Position numbers and translations under genes: made by a program | The notes under the pieces: generated by a model | Told to the model about the DNA's origin: nothing | What the model saw: the letters and a program-made list of their open reading frames with translations, nothing else | Database searches by the model: none | From: an uncultured archaeon | GTDB taxonomy: Archaea > Iainarchaeota > Iainarchaeia > Iainarchaeales > CSSED10-239 | Assembly (NCBI GenBank): GCA_964463155.1 | Contig: CAYXAY010000010.1 | Coordinates: 1-21,949, forward strand | Length of the DNA stretch: 21,949 bases | Direction: 5' to 3' | Shown here: positions 11,425-21,909 of the stretch, in pieces | Layout: each line of letters opens with the position of its first letter | Position numbering within the stretch: the first letter of the stretch is position 1

Positions 11425-12096
11425 ATGAACTCTATTGAAAAAATATATAACCGATTGTTAACAGATTATGGGAGACAAGGCTGGTGGCCATTATCTGATA
11501 TTGGTTATCATCCTGGAAAATATTATTTGATTAAAACACATGCACAAATATTTGAAATATATGCTGGGGCAATATTAACACAAAGTGCTTCTTGGAAAAA
11601 TGTCGAAAAAGCAATCTATAATCTTAAAAAAAATGATTTGCTTAATCCTAAAGCAATAATTGAAAAAGACCAAGAAACAATAAAACATGCAATTAAATCT
11701 GTTGGCTATTATAATCAAAAATATCAAAGACTCGTTGATATTTCTAAATTTTATTTATCTTTAAAAGATAGAATGCCTACAAGATCTGAACTTCTTTCTG
11801 TTAAAGGAATTGGAAAAGAAACAGCGGATTCTATTCTTTTATATGGTCATAGAGAACCAATCTTTGTTGTTGATGCTTATACAATAAGAATACTATTAAA
11901 TCTTAAAATTATCAAGAAAAATGCAAAATACGAAGAAATACAGAAATTATTTGTGGATAACCTTCCAAGAGATTTCAAGATTTATCAAGAATATCATGCT
12001 CTTTTAGTAGAACATGCAAAAAGATATTATACTAAACGCACAATTAAAGAAAAAAAGAATAAAAAGATAATTGATCCCTTAATTGAAATTATCTAA
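11425..12096 (+). CDS. HhH-GPD superfamily DNA glycosylase, endonuclease III-related (COG2231-like). It has no C-terminal Fe-S cysteine cluster.
   Basis: Helix-hairpin-helix LLSVKGIGKETADSILLYG followed by PIFVVDAYTIRIL (Asp codon 11872..11874). WW motif YGRQGWWP near the N-terminus. The product contains no cysteine at all. Confidence 0.8.
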   Translation: MNSIEKIYNRLLTDYGRQGWWPLSDIGYHPGKYYLIKTHAQIFEIYAGAILTQSASWKNVEKAIYNLKKNDLLNPKAIIEKDQETIKHAIKSVGYYNQKYQRLVDISKFYLSLKDRMPTRSELLSVKGIGKETADSILLYGHREPIFVVDAYTIRILLNLKIIKKNAKYEEIQKLFVDNLPRDFKIYQEYHALLVEHAKRYYTKRTIKEKKNKKIIDPLIEII

Positions 12097-15000
12097 CTTT
12101 ATTATAAAATTCATTAAAATTATCTAATAATTTGGTGTGATAATTAGGATCTTCTGCCCATGTTCTTGCAACCTCTCTAACAGTCAGTCCTTTATAATGC
12201 TTGGTTCTTACTAAATTAACTAATGTTGCTTCAAAACCAGCATGTAATGTTGGATAAGTACAAAAGTCGCTATTTCTTACTTTGTAACCGCCACATGCAC
12301 AACCAGCATAAGACTTAATTCCTGTCGGATTATTATTTAAAACTAATGCTCCATTTTTATAATTCCCTGATAACACATTATACATTGATTTTTCATTTTT
12401 AAATTTAGCTAATACAAATATTGGGTCTACTCCATAAATAGCACATAAATTATATAATGTAGGAATTGCGGTCGTAAATTTTTCATGTGCGCGATATCTA
12501 TTTGGAATAGGTTGAGAAATTTTTATAATATCTTGATAAGACAGAGATGGTGTGCTTAGAACAATAACACTATCTAGATTTCGTCTAATATTTCTTGCTG
12601 TTGCTAAATTAAGATTTCCAGAACTTAATTTTCTAAGTGATTCTGCATTTGTTGTATAACAATTATCTGTTCCAGTTTTTAAACTTGCAATCACCTGTAG
12701 AGGGGCTTTTTGTTGTGGAGATCTTTGTTGATTGTTTTGTGACCTTTTAGTTTTAAGTGTCATCACATTAGGCAATTTTCCTAAAACAAATTGCTCTGTA
12801 TTTTTTTCCTGTAAATCTAATAATTGAGAATAACTTGTTTTTGAATTATAGATATAAACATAAGTTCCGTTTTGTACATTGTTAAACAAATTAATAATAT
12901 CATTATTTAACATTCTTATACATCCATGAGATTTTTGTTGGCCCATTGAATTTTCATAATTTGTTCCATGTATGTATGTTCCTCTGTAAATTGTATTTCT
13001 ATTCCCACTATCACAACCAACACCTAAATTCTCTTTTTCTAAACCGTCAAGAACAAGTTTTCGTGTAACGATTTTTGCAGTTCCTGAATTTAAACTTGCA
13101 AATACTGGAAAACCGTTATTTGTTTCAGGCCCATTTGCCCCAATTACTTGCAATGGAACTGCATTTTGACCGGATTTTTGTATAACTCTAAATAATCCCA
13201 AAGGTGTTTTTAAACTACCAGTTTCACATCCAAATCCATTAACTCCCGTAGATATTGGATATTCAGAAATAATTTGTGTTTGATTATTTAATTTTTTTAC
13301 TAAAAATATTCTTTTATATTTTCCTAATATTATTATCATTGGATCTTGAGAAACTAATCTAATTCTTTCATTAATTTCTGACATTGAATTAGTATAATTG
13401 GTTTTATAATATATATTAAATTCTTTTTGTAAGATCCTATCATAAACTTCATTTAATTCTCCATACATATTGTCATTTAATACCGTTCTTTGAGTTGAAG
13501 AAGCCAGTTCAAAAGAATTATAATAATCTAAAATATAATCTGGCAAAATTGTATTATTTACCTCCATAGACCCAAAATAAATAGATCGCTCTCTTGCTTT
13601 TGCTCTTAATTTTTGATATAGATTATTAGAAATAATAACTTCTTTTATTTGTCCATCTTCATAATATCCACAAGCATTCTTTCCTCTTGCTGTTGTTTTT
13701 AAGAAAACATCTAATTTTTCTATTTTTAATGTGCTTCCCCAAGAGTGTATAATATAATGATTAGAACCAATTTTTCCTAGATAAACAACAACATGACTAT
13801 ATTCTTTATTCCAATAACTTGTGTTGTTATGTTTTATACCAAGAATAGAACCCGGAACTAAAGAATCATAATAACTTTTATTTAAAGTTCCAACTGTTGT
13901 TTTCCAGATACTTTTGTTATTTGGTTGCATTGCTAAATCCCACGCATTTGCAGAATCAAATCTATATCCAAAAAAATAATTATTGAAATTTTTAATAAAT
14001 GCAGAACAGGAATTAACTCTTGGATTAGACCAATAGCTTACACAGTTTGTGGGGGTGTTTGGAACACAAGTTGTATTAAATCTGGAATAAAATCCGCCGT
14101 TTGGTGTTTGCGCGGTTTTTGAAACTTGACAAATTAAAGATTCGTTACAATTAAACAAATCTATAAATTCTTTATTTAGATTTGGTTCAGCCTTTAATAA
14201 TTCCTTGTATGCAAGCCCATAATTTCTAAAAACATCTAAATTACGAATTTCAATTTGATTTTGTAATTGAGTATTTACTAAATTCATTTTTTCATATAAT
14301 TCGTTTCCATTTTCTGTGTAAATCGCAAGGCTTGTGTTTACCTGAGAACCTGTATTTTGTGTTAATTGATTAGATAAAGAATTACTTTCATTAATTACTT
14401 TATTAAATTCATTATATGCTATAGATTTAATAGAATCCAATTCTACAGCTATATTTTTCCAAACACTAAAACTATCTTGCGAAACTAAAAAACAAAATTC
14501 TCTATTTGATATTCCATTAATTAATTCTGATAAATTAAAATTTATTTCCGGAACAATAATTTTGTAAAGATAAAGATTATCAACTACAGAATAATTTAAA
14601 TGCTCTAAATTAAATAACAATAAATTTGTTGATTCAATAATTAACGGATAATCTCTAAATATGGGTTTTGGGGGATAAATAATTAAGGTGTCTCTTGTTT
14701 GATCTTCTATATAAATTACAGAAATATTTTGCAAATCTATAGGCACATATTCTTTTCCGTTATAATTTTTTATTGTAATTTCGGTGTCTTGTTCTTTAGT
14801 TATTATCACCGGGCTAGTATAGTTGATTGAAATATTTGAATTTAAAACAAAAAGTTTTCCATTTTGCAAATCATTGGTTGTATCTATTTGATTAATATTT
14901 TTAGATTTTATTGAATCTGTTTGACTTAAAAAATCAGAATTAAAATTATAGCTAATTGGATTTATTGATTTATAAAATAATGGATTATATGAATAATATC

Positions 15001-17347
15001 TATTAGATTCTAAATAGCTTAAATATAGAGGTGTACTTGGTTCTTCTAATTTAATTATTGCATTTCGCCAATTTATATTTATTTCTTCAATGTTTACAAC
15101 TACGGTTTTTGGGCTAATAATGTCTTCTGTATTTGTAAGGGTCAATTCCCAATAATTTCTTAAAAACCTATTGTATTGATTTTTTAATATGTGTTTGGTT
15201 TCTCCGGTTATATCTAAAAATGGTTTAAGATTATATATAAAATAATTTAAAGATTCTGAAAAATAAATATTGGAATAACCTCGTGTCTTGTTTTCTAAAC
15301 TAAATAACAATTTAGAATAAATGTCGTTAGTTGATCTTGGAATTTTAAAATAATTAATTGAAGAAATATATTTCTCTACAGTTATTTGATAGTGTGTGTG
15401 ATAATCTGTATATTTATAATACTCTGTAGGATTAACTAATATTTCTTGCATTATTCTTTGAAATTCTTGTTCGCTTACTTCTGGTTCATTATTTACTAAA
15501 TCAAGTATTGTTAGTTTTTGATATTCTCTTGGAATTTGATTTAAAACAGCTATTGAATGATTAAAAGAATCATCAATTGAGGCATTTGACGAATTTGCAG
15601 TATATTCATTCAAATCGTGCTCTATATACGTACCAACTTTAGAGATTAAATTATTTCTTGCTTTTTTGTATTTTATATCTCCAAGTTGAATAACATTATT
15701 ACTATTAATATTATCTAACTTTTTAGAAATTGCAATCCTAAACTGATCTTGATCTATATAATATTCCCCATAATCAAATAAATCAGAAGTTATTTTTAGA
15801 TCATCCCATTCAAAATACATTCTATCTAATCCAAATATTTGCAAAGCTTCATTTGTAAATCCAGATATTCGCGAGCCATCTGGTAAAAGACAAACATTTT
15901 CTTTTGCTTTTAAATGTTCTGTAATTGACTTTTTATCTTTTTCAAAAATGGATTTACCACAAGCTGAAAAACTATTTTCATTAAGTCCATAATCTTTTAA
16001 TCGACAATAAGGACAATAGAATTCTATAATGTTTTTATTAATTTGAAATAAAGCATATTTATTAAAATTATTATAATCCATTTGCAAAAGATTTGTACTG
16101 TAAATTCCAGTTACTTTCTGATGTACATCTAATTCAATTATTTGTATAGAAATATTCTCTATGTTTGGTTTAATGTTTAATATTAACTTGTTATTTGTTA
16201 ATGATGGTCGATTAAATTTAAGATATCTGGGGCTACTATTTAATAATTCAATTGTTGGATTATTACTTAAAACAAACAGATTCATATTTGGTAAAATAGG
16301 AGATTGAGCACGATCTATAGCAACATATATTTCTTTGGTTGTGCTTGAAAGGATCAGATTTAAATCAACTAATTTGTCTTGTCTGATTTCTTCTAAAGAA
16401 TTGTTTATAACATGTGTTCTCCCTTGATTATACACATAAATTCTTTTTCTAATATTTCTATTGTGAGCCAAAGAATAACTAGAAATATTTAAATATTTAT
16501 AATTTATTTGAGAATTTAATACAAACGAATTATTTAACTCATTTTCTGAGAAATTAGAGAAAATATTAGAAAATTCGTCTGTCTCTATAGATTCTGGTAT
16601 TTGTTGATTTTCTAGATTAATGTCTAAATCTCCTTCATTACTTGTATTTGGAAGAGGAAATATTATATCTGATTGTAAATCCGTTACCTCTAATCTAAAT
16701 TCAAAGATAGATTTTGTAGTTTCTAAATTTTCAGAATCAAACATAAATTGTTTTTTTAAATATCTATTTCCAAATATGTCTTTAGTGTATTTTTCTTGAT
16801 TACTAGAGAAATTGCTCTTGTCAACTAAAGATGCTTTATTTTCTCTATTAAATATTGTTTTACCAAGATCATACCTTGCAATAAATATTGTAATATTTAC
16901 ATCAGATGCAATATTTGAAATTGCACTAAATCCTTCCTGTTGAGAACAAACTGAACAATTTAAATCTAATATAATATAAGATTCATTATCTTCTGTTAAA
17001 TTAAAATAAAAAACACCATAATTATTTGAATATTTTTGATCTATCTGGAAAGAATTAAAAAATTGGCTTCTTGAAGAAGAGAGATTTTGTTTAATTAAAT
17101 CTAGATCATACATTATTTTGCTTGCATCTTGTATTGTTCTGTTTTCTGAAATGTCGTTGTTAATTGCATAAAATACAACAATTTCTTTATTTAATAGAGA
17201 CGGTCCAGTATCGGCGAATCTCACTTCTAAATATCTGTTCTCAATAACACCAGTGTCTGTTATTATTAATCCCTTTTCTAAAGCTAACAATGATGGCAAA
17301 GAAAATATCATAAATGTAATAAAAAAGATTATTTGTTTTTGATTCAT
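12089..17347 (-). CDS. Large (1752 aa) secreted multidomain peptidoglycan-active protein: orphan N-terminal region, then NlpC/P60-like, YkuD L,D-transpeptidase and GH73 glucosaminidase-like modules.
   Basis: ATG at 17347. Signal peptide MNQKQIIFFITFMIFSLPSLLA. Catalytic-motif matches are listed in the sub-features. The stop at 12089..12091 overlaps the convergent glycosylase gene by 8 nt. Confidence 0.9.
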   Translation of the reverse strand: MNQKQIIFFITFMIFSLPSLLALEKGLIITDTGVIENRYLEVRFADTGPSLLNKEIVVFYAINNDISENRTIQDASKIMYDLDLIKQNLSSSRSQFFNSFQIDQKYSNNYGVFYFNLTEDNESYIILDLNCSVCSQQEGFSAISNIASDVNITIFIARYDLGKTIFNRENKASLVDKSNFSSNQEKYTKDIFGNRYLKKQFMFDSENLETTKSIFEFRLEVTDLQSDIIFPLPNTSNEGDLDINLENQQIPESIETDEFSNIFSNFSENELNNSFVLNSQINYKYLNISSYSLAHNRNIRKRIYVYNQGRTHVINNSLEEIRQDKLVDLNLILSSTTKEIYVAIDRAQSPILPNMNLFVLSNNPTIELLNSSPRYLKFNRPSLTNNKLILNIKPNIENISIQIIELDVHQKVTGIYSTNLLQMDYNNFNKYALFQINKNIIEFYCPYCRLKDYGLNENSFSACGKSIFEKDKKSITEHLKAKENVCLLPDGSRISGFTNEALQIFGLDRMYFEWDDLKITSDLFDYGEYYIDQDQFRIAISKKLDNINSNNVIQLGDIKYKKARNNLISKVGTYIEHDLNEYTANSSNASIDDSFNHSIAVLNQIPREYQKLTILDLVNNEPEVSEQEFQRIMQEILVNPTEYYKYTDYHTHYQITVEKYISSINYFKIPRSTNDIYSKLLFSLENKTRGYSNIYFSESLNYFIYNLKPFLDITGETKHILKNQYNRFLRNYWELTLTNTEDIISPKTVVVNIEEININWRNAIIKLEEPSTPLYLSYLESNRYYSYNPLFYKSINPISYNFNSDFLSQTDSIKSKNINQIDTTNDLQNGKLFVLNSNISINYTSPVIITKEQDTEITIKNYNGKEYVPIDLQNISVIYIEDQTRDTLIIYPPKPIFRDYPLIIESTNLLLFNLEHLNYSVVDNLYLYKIIVPEINFNLSELINGISNREFCFLVSQDSFSVWKNIAVELDSIKSIAYNEFNKVINESNSLSNQLTQNTGSQVNTSLAIYTENGNELYEKMNLVNTQLQNQIEIRNLDVFRNYGLAYKELLKAEPNLNKEFIDLFNCNESLICQVSKTAQTPNGGFYSRFNTTCVPNTPTNCVSYWSNPRVNSCSAFIKNFNNYFFGYRFDSANAWDLAMQPNNKSIWKTTVGTLNKSYYDSLVPGSILGIKHNNTSYWNKEYSHVVVYLGKIGSNHYIIHSWGSTLKIEKLDVFLKTTARGKNACGYYEDGQIKEVIISNNLYQKLRAKARERSIYFGSMEVNNTILPDYILDYYNSFELASSTQRTVLNDNMYGELNEVYDRILQKEFNIYYKTNYTNSMSEINERIRLVSQDPMIIILGKYKRIFLVKKLNNQTQIISEYPISTGVNGFGCETGSLKTPLGLFRVIQKSGQNAVPLQVIGANGPETNNGFPVFASLNSGTAKIVTRKLVLDGLEKENLGVGCDSGNRNTIYRGTYIHGTNYENSMGQQKSHGCIRMLNNDIINLFNNVQNGTYVYIYNSKTSYSQLLDLQEKNTEQFVLGKLPNVMTLKTKRSQNNQQRSPQQKAPLQVIASLKTGTDNCYTTNAESLRKLSSGNLNLATARNIRRNLDSVIVLSTPSLSYQDIIKISQPIPNRYRAHEKFTTAIPTLYNLCAIYGVDPIFVLAKFKNEKSMYNVLSGNYKNGALVLNNNPTGIKSYAGCACGGYKVRNSDFCTYPTLHAGFEATLVNLVRTKHYKGLTVREVARTWAEDPNYHTKLLDNFNEFYNKVR
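12095..12460 (-). other. GH73 (mannosyl-glycoprotein endo-beta-N-acetylglucosaminidase-like) domain.
   Basis: YGVDPIFVLAKFKNEKSMY (candidate catalytic Glu codon 12392..12394), NNPTGIK, FCTYPTLHAGFEATLVNLV and WAEDPNYHTKLLDNF. These follow the family pattern AQ-ES-G, N-N-l-F-G-i-K, F-r-.-Y-.-s-.-.-.-S-.-.-D-y, Y-A-t-D-p-.-Y. Confidence 0.7.
12845..13345 (-). other. YkuD-type L,D-transpeptidase catalytic domain.
   Basis: YPISTGVNGFGCETGSLKTPLGLFRV ... YIHGTNYENSMGQQKSHGCIRMLNNDIINLFN. The hallmark is H-G-x(n)-S-H-G-C-I-R-M, with the Cys codon at 12920..12922. Confidence 0.85.
13700..14060 (-). other. NlpC/P60-like (papain-fold cysteine peptidase) module.
   Basis: Candidate nucleophile in NSCSAFIKNF (Cys codon 14006..14008). 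PGSILGIK...YSHVVVYLGKIGSNHYIIHSWG supplies His codons 13793..13795 and 13745..13747. This follows the C...pGd-l......H-V-.-i-Y-l-G.....i-H order of NlpC/P60 enzymes. Confidence 0.6.
17282..17347 (-). other. Signal peptide of the 1752-aa protein.
   Basis: MNQKQ n-region, hydrophobic core IIFFITFMIFSLPSLL, and A-L-E at the boundary. Confidence 0.7.
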
Positions 17348-18859: not shown

Positions 18860-19022
18860 AAGAAACAAGCATTTTCCTGTTATTTCCAGTAAGTTTCGCG
18901 AAAAGTATTTAAATAGAAAGAATTATAAGGTTTGTATAAGTAAACGATTTAATGAAAATGTCATTAAATCCCCTTTAGGAATAAAACTAAAAATTTAAGG
19001 AGAAAAGAAAATGAATGAAAAA
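18845..19022 (+). repeat. Leader repeat copy 2.
   Basis: See copy 1. It overlaps the last 15 nt of CDS 17588..18859 and runs through ATGAATGAAAAA of CDS 19011..20591. Confidence 0.9.
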
Positions 19023-20591
19023 TTAACAAAATCAATTAACATTGGTGTTATTGCTATTGTTCTTGTATTTTTAGCATTAATAGTGACACCAAAGATTTCT
19101 GCAACCGAAACAGGAAATGTACCGGCAAATAATGCGGAACAAATAACTAGTGTTTTTCCAACAACCGGTGTTTGGGTTGTTGTTACTGAATCTGGAAAAC
19201 CATTAAATAACAGAAGTGTAAAGTTCATTGAACCAAACAACGGTGAACCAGAATATGTGCCTAGAGAATACAAAACCAATGAATTGGGAGTAATATATTT
19301 GAGATTAGGCACTAATCTGGAATTCAAAATAGCAGACACAAAAACAGGCATTGCTAAAATTATTAACACTGGTTTTGTAGGACCAATACTAATAAATTTA
19401 GATGTAACTAACTACGGAACTCAAAATAACGACTATCCGGAAGGAATTTTTGATTTAAAAGTAAGTGTAAAAGATAAGCACACTAATAAACCAATATCAT
19501 CTGCAAGAGTGTCAATACAAAGTGAAGATTACACTTCAACTCAAAGAACATTTTTTACAAACGATGAGGGCGTTACAATTATTGAATATTTACCAACCGG
19601 TATATATTCTTTCAGAATTTCAGCAACTAATTATGTTGAACAAAATGTAAAAAATTATTTCTTTGGTTCAACCAGCAATTTAAATATTGACTTGCGTACT
19701 GCAAATTTTGAGCAAAACCCATTAGATGGTCGCACTAATCATTTAATCTCTTTTGAAAAATGTGCAGTAGACAAATTAAAAACAATTATTTCAAAAGAAG
19801 CAGTCACATCAAGAAGTGAAGTTAAACACTACAATGTTTGCGAAGCTAAAGGATTTATTGACTACCACAAAAAAATATATTATATGTCTAAAGATGAAAG
19901 CTATATTTCTAGGGTTACTTTAAACAATTTAGATTTAACTAAATATACACAAAAACAAACACCAAAAGCAAAATTAATATTTTCAACAGACTCTGGAAAT
20001 AAATGTTATGAAAAAGAATTAATGTTATTAAAATCTGTGCCAGAGCAAGGGGCTTATAAATTTATAACAACATTAATTAAAGAAGATCTTCTTGAAACAC
20101 AAAAATCAGACATTGGTTATCTTAGTGCAAATTGTGGAATAGGAAAGATAATTAAACTATCTGTTGAAATATATGATGTAGACAATAACCCTATCTTTTC
20201 TATAGAGGATGTTTCTTCAATAACAAGAATAATGATTTTCTCAAATAAAGAAGAAGATATGGCTATAGCAAATCAAGAAAATAACCAGAGAGTGACTAGC
20301 GATATAATTCAAAGAGAAAGAACTGAAATTTCAAATATTAAAGAACATCAAATTTCTAGAGAATCTGAAATCTTTGTAAATATTGGTAATGAAAAAAGAA
20401 AAGTCGTTTCAATAGAAAATATTTTAGAAGAAAGAAATATCAATCCAAACAAAATCATCAGTGACATAAAACTAGAAGAGACAGAATATGTTTTTGATGT
20501 TAAAGAAAAAAAGAGACTTTTGGGGTTCATTCCTTTTGGAGAAAAGATAGTTGAAAAAAGAATATCTGCCATAAGAGAAATTAGAGAGTAA
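19011..20591 (+). CDS. Secreted protein (526 aa): carboxypeptidase-regulatory-like beta-sandwiches, the shared four-Cys domain and a charged C-terminal extension.
   Basis: GGAG at 18999..19002. Signal peptide MNEKLTKSINIGVIAIVLVFLALIVTPKISA. DLKVSVKDKHTNKPISSARVSIQSEDYTSTQRTFFTNDEGVTIIEYLPTGIYSFRISATNYVEQ (about 19441..19680) fits the CarboxypepD_reg-like pattern. Confidence 0.85.
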   Translation: MNEKLTKSINIGVIAIVLVFLALIVTPKISATETGNVPANNAEQITSVFPTTGVWVVVTESGKPLNNRSVKFIEPNNGEPEYVPREYKTNELGVIYLRLGTNLEFKIADTKTGIAKIINTGFVGPILINLDVTNYGTQNNDYPEGIFDLKVSVKDKHTNKPISSARVSIQSEDYTSTQRTFFTNDEGVTIIEYLPTGIYSFRISATNYVEQNVKNYFFGSTSNLNIDLRTANFEQNPLDGRTNHLISFEKCAVDKLKTIISKEAVTSRSEVKHYNVCEAKGFIDYHKKIYYMSKDESYISRVTLNNLDLTKYTQKQTPKAKLIFSTDSGNKCYEKELMLLKSVPEQGAYKFITTLIKEDLLETQKSDIGYLSANCGIGKIIKLSVEIYDVDNNPIFSIEDVSSITRIMIFSNKEEDMAIANQENNQRVTSDIIQRERTEISNIKEHQISRESEIFVNIGNEKRKVVSIENILEERNINPNKIISDIKLEETEYVFDVKEKKRLLGFIPFGEKIVEKRISAIREIRE

Positions 20592-20666: not shown

Positions 20667-21539
20667 ATGATTAAGAAACAAATATTGATACTCTTTGTTT
20701 TTCTAGCAATCATTAATTATAATTATGCCCACAGTGTTGTTTCTCAAGACACAGAAATATTTGCAGATAAGTTTGATAGTTATAAGGTTTCCGAAAAATT
20801 AACAATTACAGATATTAATTCTCAAAAATTAGAATTTCCTATTGTTCCAAGTTATGACCTTGTTGTTAAGGTTAACAATCAGAGATATTCAAATATAACC
20901 TACACTAGTGATTTATTAATTATTAATTTAAATAATATTCCAGAAACACTTAATCTGGAAATAATTTATCTTACGGATTATTATACAAACAAAAATAACG
21001 GGATTTGGAACATCAAATATAAATCCAGACATTCAGAAAGTCTAAATACTTTAAAAATAACTCTACCAAGAAATGCAGAAATAACAGAAACACTAATCTC
21101 TTCTCCTGTTCAAGTAATCAATGAACAAATTGTTATTTCTTTTAAAGATATCACAGAAATAAATATTAATTATTATTTAAGAAATGTTGAATATAAGAAC
21201 AATTATTATTATTATTTATTAATAATTCCATTTGTTTTTGTTGGTGGGTATCTATTAATTAAAAATAAACCGAAAATTAAAAAAGAAATAAAAACTATAG
21301 AAAAGGATTTACTTTTTGGATTAAATGAGAATGAACAAAAGATTATGAATATAATTATTGAAAATGAAGGACAATCTCAAAAAATGATAACTGCCAAAAG
21401 TTTCTTACCTAAAGGAACAGTTTCAAGAAATATACAAAAACTTGTAGATAAAGGATATATCCATATAAAAAAATATGGAGTAAGCAATAAACTTTTCCTT
21501 GGAGAAGTATTTAAAAAAGGTGAAAAAAATGCTAAATAA
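20667..21539 (+). CDS. Membrane-tethered winged-helix (MarR/TrmB-like) transcriptional regulator with an extracytoplasmic N-terminal domain.
   Basis: N-terminal signal or anchor MIKKQILILFVFLAIINYNYA. About 160-aa outside domain. TM YYYYLLIIPFVFVGGYLLI (about 21200..21260). Then KIKKEIK and LNENEQKIMNIIIENEGQSQKMITAKSFLPKGTVSRNIQKLVDKGYIHIKKYG (about 21310..21480), a typical wHTH. Confidence 0.75.
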   Translation: MIKKQILILFVFLAIINYNYAHSVVSQDTEIFADKFDSYKVSEKLTITDINSQKLEFPIVPSYDLVVKVNNQRYSNITYTSDLLIINLNNIPETLNLEIIYLTDYYTNKNNGIWNIKYKSRHSESLNTLKITLPRNAEITETLISSPVQVINEQIVISFKDITEININYYLRNVEYKNNYYYYLLIIPFVFVGGYLLIKNKPKIKKEIKTIEKDLLFGLNENEQKIMNIIIENEGQSQKMITAKSFLPKGTVSRNIQKLVDKGYIHIKKYGVSNKLFLGEVFKKGEKNAK

Positions 21540-21909
21540 AAGAATAATAATCGGAATAATTATGGCAATTGTTTTTGTTTCGGGATTAGTTATTGGGTTT
21601 CTAATCTTTTCTGAAAAAAATACAACAGAGATTGCAAATCCGGCGTCTGCTTATTGTAAAAATCTTGGAGGAACATTAAATATTGTATCTTCAAAACAAG
21701 GAGAATATGGAATATGCACATTTGAAGATGGATCTCAATGTGAAGAATGGAAACTTTATAGAAAAGGGTGCTTTAAAGGACAATATCCTCCAACAGGAGG
21801 TAAAGTTTGTACAATGGAATACAAACCTGTTTGTGGAGTTAATGGGGTTACTTATGGGAATGCATGTGCTGCAGACAGTGTTCCAATACTAAAAGAAGGA
21901 GAATGTTAA
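21529..21909 (+). CDS. Membrane-anchored or secreted DUF333-like plus Kazal-like (serine protease inhibitor fold) protein.
   Basis: I prefer the ATG at 21529, with AGGTGA at 21518..21523, over the track's TTG at 21499. It overlaps the preceding gene by 11 nt. Hydrophobic helix IIIGIIMAIVFVSGLVIGFLIF. NPASAYCKNLGGTLNIVSSKQGEYGICTFEDGSQCEEWKLYRKGC matches the DUF333 pattern. CTMEYKPVCGVNGVTYGNAC...GEC (21808..21906) matches the Kazal core C-x7-C-x10-C with PVCG.nG.TY.N.C. Confidence 0.75.
   Translation: MLNKRIIIGIIMAIVFVSGLVIGFLIFSEKNTTEIANPASAYCKNLGGTLNIVSSKQGEYGICTFEDGSQCEEWKLYRKGCFKGQYPPTGGKVCTMEYKPVCGVNGVTYGNACAADSVPILKEGEC

Follow-up and report, generated by a model that had tools for sequence, protein, structure and literature searches.

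A giant, probably exported archaeal protein with three catalytic-type modules that may dismantle bacterial peptidoglycan

Why would an archaeon encode, in one polypeptide, the signatures of three different peptidoglycan enzymes? This question is raised by a 21,949-nucleotide stretch of DNA from an uncultured archaeon of the Iainarchaeota (contig CAYXAY010000010.1 of assembly GCA_964463155.1), which as a whole we refer to as the window. One of its genes encodes a 1,752-amino-acid (aa) multidomain protein. A sequence-only reading had noted motifs of an NlpC/P60-like peptidase, a YkuD L,D-transpeptidase (Ldt), and a GH73 glucosaminidase at positions 12089 to 14060, which correspond to residues 1096 to 1752, the last 657 codons of the open reading frame (ORF). 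Every motif that it quoted is present in this single ORF (12089..17347 on the minus strand), the residues that it named as catalytic are the conserved ones, and the protein appears to carry three separate catalytic-type modules, in the order proposed, in one exported polypeptide. We propose, with moderate confidence, that this is an exported archaeal protein whose three modules dismantle bacterial peptidoglycan. To our knowledge archaea have no murein, so the target would be the wall of another organism; an archaeal producer thus rules out murein housekeeping and strengthens a reading as wall attack or scavenging.

The identity of the middle module is certain. It matches the Pfam family YkuD (PF03734) over residues 1354 to 1499 with 58.9 bits against a gathering threshold (GA) of 23.4, bearing out what had been read from HG...SHGCIRM, and the homolog P0004 scores 59.7 bits. 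The module itself starts ahead of the Pfam match, near residue 1336 (PMIIILGKYK...). Its catalytic motif, H-x(12-17)-[ST]-x-G-C-x-[RN], is complete (IHGTNYENSMGQQKSHGCIRM; H-x12-SHGCIR), with His1460 in YIHGTN at residue 1458 and Cys1476 in SHGCIRM at residues 1473 to 1479, and both residues are invariant across all homologs. In matches to PDB structures, the motif IHGTN-x9-SHGCIRM aligns with Bacillus subtilis YkuD and other Ldt structures. The nearest curated model in NCBIfam is that of the L,D-carboxypeptidase ElsL (NF040925; 85.2 bits, profile positions 24 to 162 of 164), but the score falls far short of the equivalog cutoff of 270 bits, and the module is therefore not an ElsL ortholog.

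YkuD-fold hydrolases and toxins are documented, among them ElsL (PMC8649774), Csd6 (PMC4599014), and a type VI secretion system (T6SS) effector, Tlde1a (PMC9638812), in which the fold serves an offensive purpose, with L,D-carboxypeptidase activity and exchange of D-amino acids. With these proteins the module has in common a minimal YkuD domain and the HGT...SHGC motif. It differs from them in its setting, as part of a giant, probably exported archaeal protein: ElsL resides in the cytoplasm, and Tlde1a is delivered through T6SS injection. An L,D-transpeptidase fold between two hydrolases, which had been called unusual, is less so in light of such precedents as ElsL and Tlde1a (PMC9638812), and the accompanying idea that it edits stem peptides would fit, by analogy, both the closest curated relative, ElsL, and Tlde1a. 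As judged from its sequence, a hydrolytic or stem-editing role of the module is most likely.

The first of the three modules (residues ~1094 to 1262) belongs to the NlpC/P60-LRAT-CHAP superfamily (Pfam clan Peptidase_CA) as a divergent, papain-like domain of Cys/His amidase type, but it is not a member of Pfam NLPC_P60. Its motifs are NSCSAF at residues 1112 to 1117 (Cys1114), SHVVVYLG at 1184 to 1191 (His1185), and IIHS at 1199 to 1202 (His1201). The module of the window protein has no match in Pfam, NCBIfam, or PHROG, and NLPC_P60 (PF00877, MEROPS C40) gives none even at an E value of up to 1. An exhaustive HMMER search with a two-sequence profile against 1.84 billion representatives found 45 relatives at E < 1e-3. 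Across a 40-sequence alignment of the family, His1185 is invariant, Cys1114 is at least 90% conserved, and the position of His1201 is taken by H, E, Q, N, or D; PG.ILG and Y.G motifs are also held in common. When the domains of these 40 members were scanned alone against Pfam, NLPC_P60 matched two of them weakly (best E of 5e-4), and the other weak matches, to LRAT (two), Peptidase_C92 (two), and CHAP (one), all fall in the same papain-like clan.

An AlphaFold2 model of this module from the 40-sequence alignment has a predicted local distance difference test (pLDDT) score of 88.4 and a predicted template modeling (TM) score of 0.82. In it, Cys44 (Cys1114) starts a helix (44 to 56), His115 (His1185) starts a strand (115 to 123), and His131 (His1201) lies within the next strand (126 to 133). 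The model is thus a confident one and has a papain topology, with the Cys at the N terminus of a helix and both His residues on consecutive strands. A Foldseek search of the PDB with the model returned the CHAP domain of the Escherichia coli Gsp amidase first (E of 0.027, probability 0.93 to 0.97, TM score 0.34 to 0.37), followed by Ly7917, Tae2, PlyC, and NlpC/P60 proteins. Among the viral models of BFVD, the best match was a CHAP endolysin of a Lactococcus phage (E of 7.9e-4), and many further CHAP proteins matched with probabilities of 0.7 to 0.99 and TM scores of 0.3 to 0.38. The family profile matched only Tae2, Tse1, and an NlpC/P60 C40 peptidase among PDB sequences, weakly (E of 0.026 to 0.55). 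What stands of the NlpC/P60-like assignment is thus the papain-like Cys/His topology; the nearest structural neighbors, by weak similarity, are CHAP amidases and endolysins. Like the T6SS amidase effectors Tae2 and Tse1 and the CHAP domains of the Gsp amidase, Ly7917, and PlyC, the module has a papain-like Cys-His arrangement, but unlike them it forms a family of its own, of about 45 clusters and with no Pfam coverage, and the similarity is weak. It is further extended by a Cys-rich segment at its N terminus and a helix at its C terminus.

The same family includes small members of about 200 aa, mostly with an N-terminal membrane segment. Those at loci L010 (4348-5480), L011 (1229-2336), L012, and L013 lie directly downstream of a gene for an AsnC/Lrp-type regulator, and the contigs of two small members that were examined are archaeal, carrying histone, Hef helicase-nuclease, and FtsZ genes. 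This arrangement suggests a conserved two-gene unit of a small papain-like protein and an AsnC/Lrp-type regulator in archaea that make no murein. Since these stand-alone members are exported archaeal proteins, we infer the peptidoglycan specificity of the module in the 1,752-aa protein only from its fusion partners.

The C-terminal module is a probable remote relative of GH73, the N-acetylglucosaminidase family. The Pfam family Glucosaminidase (PF01832) matches it with 21.3 bits (E of 4.4e-4) in the whole protein and 28.0 bits (E of 3.9e-6) as an isolated domain, and the homologs P0003 and P0048 and the C terminus of P0006 score 29.8, 23.7, and 22.1 bits, respectively. This is the sole meaningful family in the domain and the three homologs, matched over profile positions of about 3 to 121 of 123 at E values of 1e-6 to 3e-4 across the four proteins. 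As a positive control, E. coli FlgJ scored 120.5 bits, with its residues 160 to 295 on profile positions 4 to 122. Glu1652, in KNEKS (1650 to 1654), and Glu181 of the FlgJ catalytic motif (ALESGWG) both fall at profile position 25, and WAEDP of the window protein lies, like YATDP of FlgJ, near position 104. No GH73-type homolog lacks Glu1652, which stands at the place of the catalytic general acid. The remaining motifs are NNPTGIK at residue 1672, for the NxFGIK motif of GH73, and WAEDPNY at residue 1730; in the latter, a YATDPxY-like motif, Trp replaces Tyr, and the motif is degenerate in some homologs. Single-sequence searches with the C-terminal 672 aa and with the GH73-like segment against 5.8 billion proteins returned only close ortholog fragments, and sequence searches of the PDB with the GH73-like domain returned nothing. 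The linker between this module and YkuD (residues 1504 to 1589) aligns poorly among homologs.

The sole hydrophobic segment of the protein is N-terminal. It spans residues 4 to 25, with a KD19 hydropathy above 1.6 only at residues 4 to 7, and a hydropathy scan of the whole protein found no further transmembrane segment; homologs show the same N-terminal stretch. Because the only hydrophobic segment lies at this end, the protein is probably exported and not anchored at its C terminus, and the segment would be consistent with signal cleavage. Residues 24 to 1070 have no match in Pfam or NCBIfam and are a candidate spacer or target-recognition part.

Homologs of the 1,752-aa protein are found on at least 15 independent contigs (archaeal contigs of metagenome-assembled genomes [MAGs] and metagenomes), the full-length ones being 44 to 60% identical to it. 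The same architecture with its catalytic motifs recurs in them, and the gene is therefore real. Among these contigs are five metagenome contigs that share this architecture, one of them labeled activated sludge and one 287 kb long; four of the five span the three modules with every catalytic motif intact, and the fifth is truncated, so that it shows the motifs of YkuD and GH73 alone. Conservation is highest in the enzyme modules, at 47 to 79% identity for the papain-like module and 60 to 80% for YkuD across homologs (79% and 80%, respectively, against the nearest relative, L005). Compared with relatives, the enzyme modules show 58 to 80% identity and the N-terminal parts 18 to 46% (30 to 46% for residues 701 to 1070), and residues 24 to 250 are largely unaligned, apparently missing, in several homologs.

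The homologs also differ in how they end. The GH73-like type is found in the window protein, P0003, P0006, and P0048 and at L004, L007, and L014 to L018. In its place, P0002 (at L001), P0004, and the proteins of L005 and L006 carry an alternative, unrelated domain of about 310 aa, and P0005 is without a C-terminal glycosidase-type module. The closest locus by flanking genes, L005, has the alternative domain, so the swap of C-terminal modules is recent. The alternative domain, which showed no relation to the GH73-like domain by hhalign, has the conserved motifs QESGTSTN...GKPAxGIAQIEK...KYKYTG...LANYLAFKKEYY. An SLT/GH23-like identity, which the QES...GIAQI motif might suggest, was not supported: Pfam gave only Phage_lysozyme2 at an E of 0.083, and PDB sequences gave only spurious JAK2 matches.

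The gene belongs to an archaeon. An alignment-based scan of GTDB representatives found six loci, all in archaeon MAGs; a scan with a single protein query found no match. A common gene order (tRNA-Leu, winged-helix-turn-helix membrane protein, secreted proteins, the 1,752-aa gene, HhH-GPD glycosylase) is found in at least seven contigs, and the flanking genes of the window are 50 to 91% identical to those of related loci, with their order kept. In all seven related contigs tRNA-Leu lies upstream, in three there is a tRNA-Ser, and in three a tRNA-Val lies downstream. One syntenic contig carries an archaeal signal recognition particle (SRP) RNA (122 bits), and related contigs reach 142 kb and 287 kb. 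This synteny and the archaeal SRP RNA rule out bacterial contamination and make a virus or mobile element very unlikely.

We therefore give very little credence to the explanation that the gene is a phage or virus lysin, mobile-element cargo, or a bacterial contaminant of the bin and not archaeal cellular equipment. Multi-catalytic lysins are indeed typical of phages, the best fold match in the viral library is a phage endolysin, and the sole tblastn match in a phage collection is a 36% identical YkuD domain of an Acinetobacter jumbo phage. However, the gene order is kept in at least seven contigs, one contig carries archaeal SRP RNA, contigs reach 142 kb and 287 kb, a family scan of the window found no phage structural or integrase families, PHROG matches were negligible, and the window holds no tRNA or Rfam mobile-element features. 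The 1,752-aa protein evolves much faster than its neighbors, being only about 60% identical to its L005 counterpart versus 91% for the HhH-GPD glycosylase. From the GC content (25 to 38% in the window), the giant surface proteins, and the literature, the low-GC producer is probably of DPANN type; it would be an episymbiont from sludge-like habitats.

How might such a protein work? In the mechanism that we favor, the 1,752-aa protein would be exported by the Sec route without being anchored, and its long, fast-evolving N-terminal region would deliver, and perhaps recognize the target of, the C-terminal three-enzyme cassette. The papain-like amidase or endopeptidase (Cys1114/His1185/His1201) would cut the stem peptide, either internally or at its base. 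Tetrapeptide stems and 3-3 cross-links would be the substrates of the YkuD module (His1460/Cys1476), which most likely hydrolyzes them, as an L,D-carboxypeptidase or endopeptidase, or exchanges their D-amino acids; it is less likely to build cross-links. The GH73-like glycosidase (Glu1652) would cut the glycan strand. Together they could open the sacculus of a bacterial host or prey, either for attachment and access or for scavenging of amino sugars and amino acids.

Several observations weigh against this reading. For the GH73-like module, the PF01832 score is below the GA of 30.2 in all four proteins scanned. Comparisons of the domain with FlgJ were not significant (hhalign E of 0.07; Smith-Waterman z of 1.6), so that the assignment rests on the Pfam profile and the motif register. 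Its AlphaFold2 model has a pLDDT of 45.5 and is too poor for use, since only four sequences were available for the alignment; Foldseek matches of this poor model had E values above 3 and included, among the non-significant ones, g-type lysozyme, MltE, and the GH73 enzyme Auto. No second catalytic carboxylate was identified in the module. For the papain-like module, no PDB fold match reached E < 1e-3 (E of at least 0.027; TM scores of 0.3 to 0.38), no curated family takes it in, and the small archaeal exported relatives mean that the native substrate of the family may be other than peptidoglycan. A Pfam scan of the whole protein recognized no cell-wall-binding domain. Lastly, in the full-length homologs P0005 and P0006 the catalytic Cys of the papain-like module is replaced by Ser and the YkuD SHGC by (S/T)GGC, with the other conserved residues kept; these proteins may be altered-mechanism or binding-only variants.

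The claims of the sequence-only reading divide along similar lines. Of the Pfam assignments that it had proposed as a check, YkuD scores above threshold, GH73 scores just below it, and the first module has no family; of the predicted structures, the papain-like module is modeled well (pLDDT 88.4) and the GH73-like module is not (pLDDT 45.5). Its GH73 assignment is upheld by the shared register with FlgJ and the sole Pfam match and, given the score below the GA, is only probable.

The altered active sites and the lack of a binding domain lend themselves to a different explanation, namely, that the protein is mainly an adhesin whose enzyme-like modules bind or tether peptidoglycan with little or no turnover, for instance through a covalent acyl-enzyme or transpeptidation link made by YkuD. 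With no classical wall-binding domain, binding must come from elsewhere, and the architecture persists in two homologs with altered active sites, where Ser stands in place of the papain Cys and the His of SHGC is gone. There is also a precedent for covalent attachment to the wall, as E. coli YkuD enzymes attach Braun lipoprotein to peptidoglycan, and the gene adjoins that of a 3,554-aa surface protein in the window and in L004. Yet the catalytic residues are all intact in the window protein and in most homologs, the enzyme modules are the most conserved parts, and the C-terminal residue is no conserved Lys acceptor, all of which leaves this explanation doubtful.

The divergence of two of the modules bears on a further alternative, in which the cassette targets an archaeal wall polymer, either the pseudomurein of methanogens or a surface glycoprotein or polymer of its own cell or of a host archaeon, for attachment or remodeling. 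In line with this, archaea that do not produce murein have small exported members of the papain-like family, at least one contig comes from activated sludge, where methanogens are common, and the GH73-like and papain-like modules are too divergent for substrate assignment. We nevertheless regard an archaeal polymer as an unlikely target. The nearest characterized relatives of all three modules are peptidoglycan enzymes, and the peptide bond attacked by YkuD enzymes is of the L,D type (meso-diaminopimelic acid or Lys to D-Ala), whereas pseudomurein stems contain only L-amino acids. Neither the chemistry of pseudomurein nor its known enzymes match these modules: its beta-1,3 linkages resist lysozyme-type enzymes, and the endoisopeptidases PeiW and PeiP belong to a different fold family.

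Within a peptidoglycan-directed function, a more elaborate possibility, which we put forward as a long shot, is that the protein is a docking and entry device for bacterial hosts. Here, host recognition would fall to the variable N-terminal ~1,050 residues, and opening of the sacculus to the papain-like and GH73-like modules. YkuD, by its transpeptidase chemistry, would tie the protein to stem peptides of the host through a covalent bond, as a grappling hook between domains of life, or re-seal the wall around the contact site. The recent swap of the C-terminal glycosidase would be an adaptation to the differing glycan chemistry of hosts, and the papain-like module would stand for exported amidases that form a new family found throughout the archaea.

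If the 1,752-aa protein does dismantle bacterial peptidoglycan, it joins a small set of known systems. Bacteria-killing modular peptidoglycan hydrolases of archaea, which are enriched in Nanoarchaeota and interpreted as weapons, are defined by one Pfam catalytic and one Pfam wall-binding domain, with YkuD absent from the S10 list (Strock et al. 2025, PLoS Biol, PMC12352652). The present protein resembles them as a secreted archaeal protein with bacterial-type wall-cleaving domains and domain shuffling, here the C-terminal swap. It differs in having no binding domain, three catalytic-type modules, a length of 1,752 aa, and only YkuD above the Pfam threshold. It therefore falls outside this definition, and the corresponding screen would miss it because YkuD is off the list and there is no binding domain. 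In Woesearchaeota AR20, a "large lytic murein transglycosylase" (GH23) has been taken as evidence that these archaea live on bacteria as predators or in a "vampiristic" manner (Vigneron et al. 2022, PMC9723730). The window protein is likewise a very large protein, of a probable DPANN archaeon, with a predicted glycan-strand-cleaving module; unlike the Woesearchaeota proteins, it has a GH73-like and not a GH23 glycosidase, with papain-like and YkuD modules alongside.

Multi-catalytic lysins and autolysins of phages and bacteria, of the types CHAP plus glucosaminidase or amidase (PlyC, LambdaSa2-like, Atl-like), also join a cysteine amidase or endopeptidase and a GH73-type glucosaminidase in one protein, so that stem peptide and glycan are attacked jointly. 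These are 250 to 1,300 aa long, have SH3b, LysM, or CBD binding modules, and are not known to have a YkuD between the hydrolases, whereas here the producer is archaeal, YkuD lies between the hydrolases, and an N-terminal part of about 1,050 aa precedes them. Archaeal peptidoglycan hydrolases, large Woesearchaeota transglycosylases, and multi-catalytic phage lysins are thus already known; what is new is an archaeal triple catalytic architecture with an embedded YkuD, an uncurated papain-like family, the module swap, and the escape from Pfam-based screens.

For most DPANN-type archaea, neither the host nor the way of life is known, and three probably murein-directed modules in a conserved, exported protein point to bacterial rather than archaeal partners or prey for a sludge-associated lineage, which suggests that these archaea attack bacteria or live off them. 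When screens for peptidoglycan hydrolases of archaea depend on Pfam thresholds, they overlook divergent proteins with several catalytic modules; of the three in this protein, YkuD alone lies above threshold, and there is no binding domain. The papain-like family defined here, of about 45 clusters, mostly with an N-terminal hydrophobic segment, has so far been uncurated, and an archaeal example, probably of offensive use, is added to the YkuD fold. Should they prove active, the whole cassette or individual modules could be used as novel lytic enzymes. The positions of the gene, its parts, and its neighbors are collected in Table 1.

TABLE 1 Positions of the 1,752-aa gene, its parts, and neighboring or related genes (window positions unless a locus is named)
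Feature	Residues	Positions	Strand	Remarks
Whole gene, 1,752-aa multidomain protein, probably exported	1-1752	12089..17347	-	Single intact ORF; stop codon 12089-12091
Putative signal peptide or signal anchor, MNQKQIIFFITFMIFSLPSLLAL	1-23	17279..17347	-	N-terminal; sole hydrophobic segment
N-terminal region, ~1,050 residues	24-1070	14138..17278	-	Conserved, though more variable in the family than any other part
Papain-like Cys/His amidase or peptidase module	~1094-1262	13562..14068	-	Cys1114, His1185, His1201; uncurated family of the CHAP/NlpC-P60 superfamily
YkuD (L,D-transpeptidase fold) module	~1336-1503	12839..13342	-	PF03734; His1460, Cys1476
Linker with Q/K/S-rich stretch, KTKRSQNNQQRSPQQK	1504-1589	12581..12838	-	Between YkuD and GH73-like modules, as read from the sequence
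GH73-like (N-acetylglucosaminidase family) module	1590-1752	12092..12580	-	Pfam match 1631-1747; Glu1652, NNPTGIK, WAEDPNY
Sister proteins with alternative C-terminal domain		L005 9878-14908; L006 9431-15277; L001 (P0002); P0004
HhH-GPD glycosylase		11425..12096	+	91% identical to L005 ortholog
Surface protein, 3,554 aa		639..11303	-	N-terminal signal, PQQ-like beta-propeller and MG2 (alpha-2-macroglobulin-type) domains
Gamma-glutamyl cyclotransferase genes		L001 11724-12266; L005 15590-16177; L006 15991-16590; L007 13478-14020
Two adjacent secreted proteins, 423 and 526 aa		17588..18859; 19011..20591	+	Homologous C-terminal domain common to both
TrmB/DUF7343 winged-helix membrane protein		20667..21539	+	3' end overlapped by start of DUF333-Kazal gene
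Small exported DUF333 and Kazal-type serine-protease-inhibitor protein		21499..21909	+	51-89% identity in L003, L005, L006, L008

The 1,752-aa gene and the HhH-GPD glycosylase gene converge, and the stop region of the former overlaps the 3' end of the latter by 8 bases (12089..12096). Beyond the glycosylase, the 3,554-aa surface protein has a long Asn/Ser/Thr-rich, coiled-coil-like repeat region (INSTVNTIN...), a Gly-rich stretch, a C-terminal transmembrane anchor, and a basic tail. A 60% identical ortholog occupies the same place in L004, and none is present in L005 to L007 within the sequence covered. This surface protein may work with the 1,752-aa protein in cell-cell contact.

After the glycosylase, four related loci carry a GGACT/AIG2-like gamma-glutamyl cyclotransferase of about 180 to 200 aa with an N-terminal hydrophobic segment, assigned by Pfam for L001, L005, and L007 and by similar C-terminal sequence only for L006. 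No GGACT family was found among the window ORFs scanned, and the 3,554-aa surface protein sits at that place instead. Next to a protein that degrades murein, an exported gamma-glutamyl cyclotransferase could process stem peptides that contain gamma-D-Glu.

On the other side of the gene, the 423-aa and 526-aa secreted proteins map to one and the same gene in L001 and in L004 to L008, which indicates a tandem duplication in the window. The second copy, of 526 aa, has a CarboxypepD_reg-like immunoglobulin domain, and the place directly upstream of the 1,752-aa gene is conserved.

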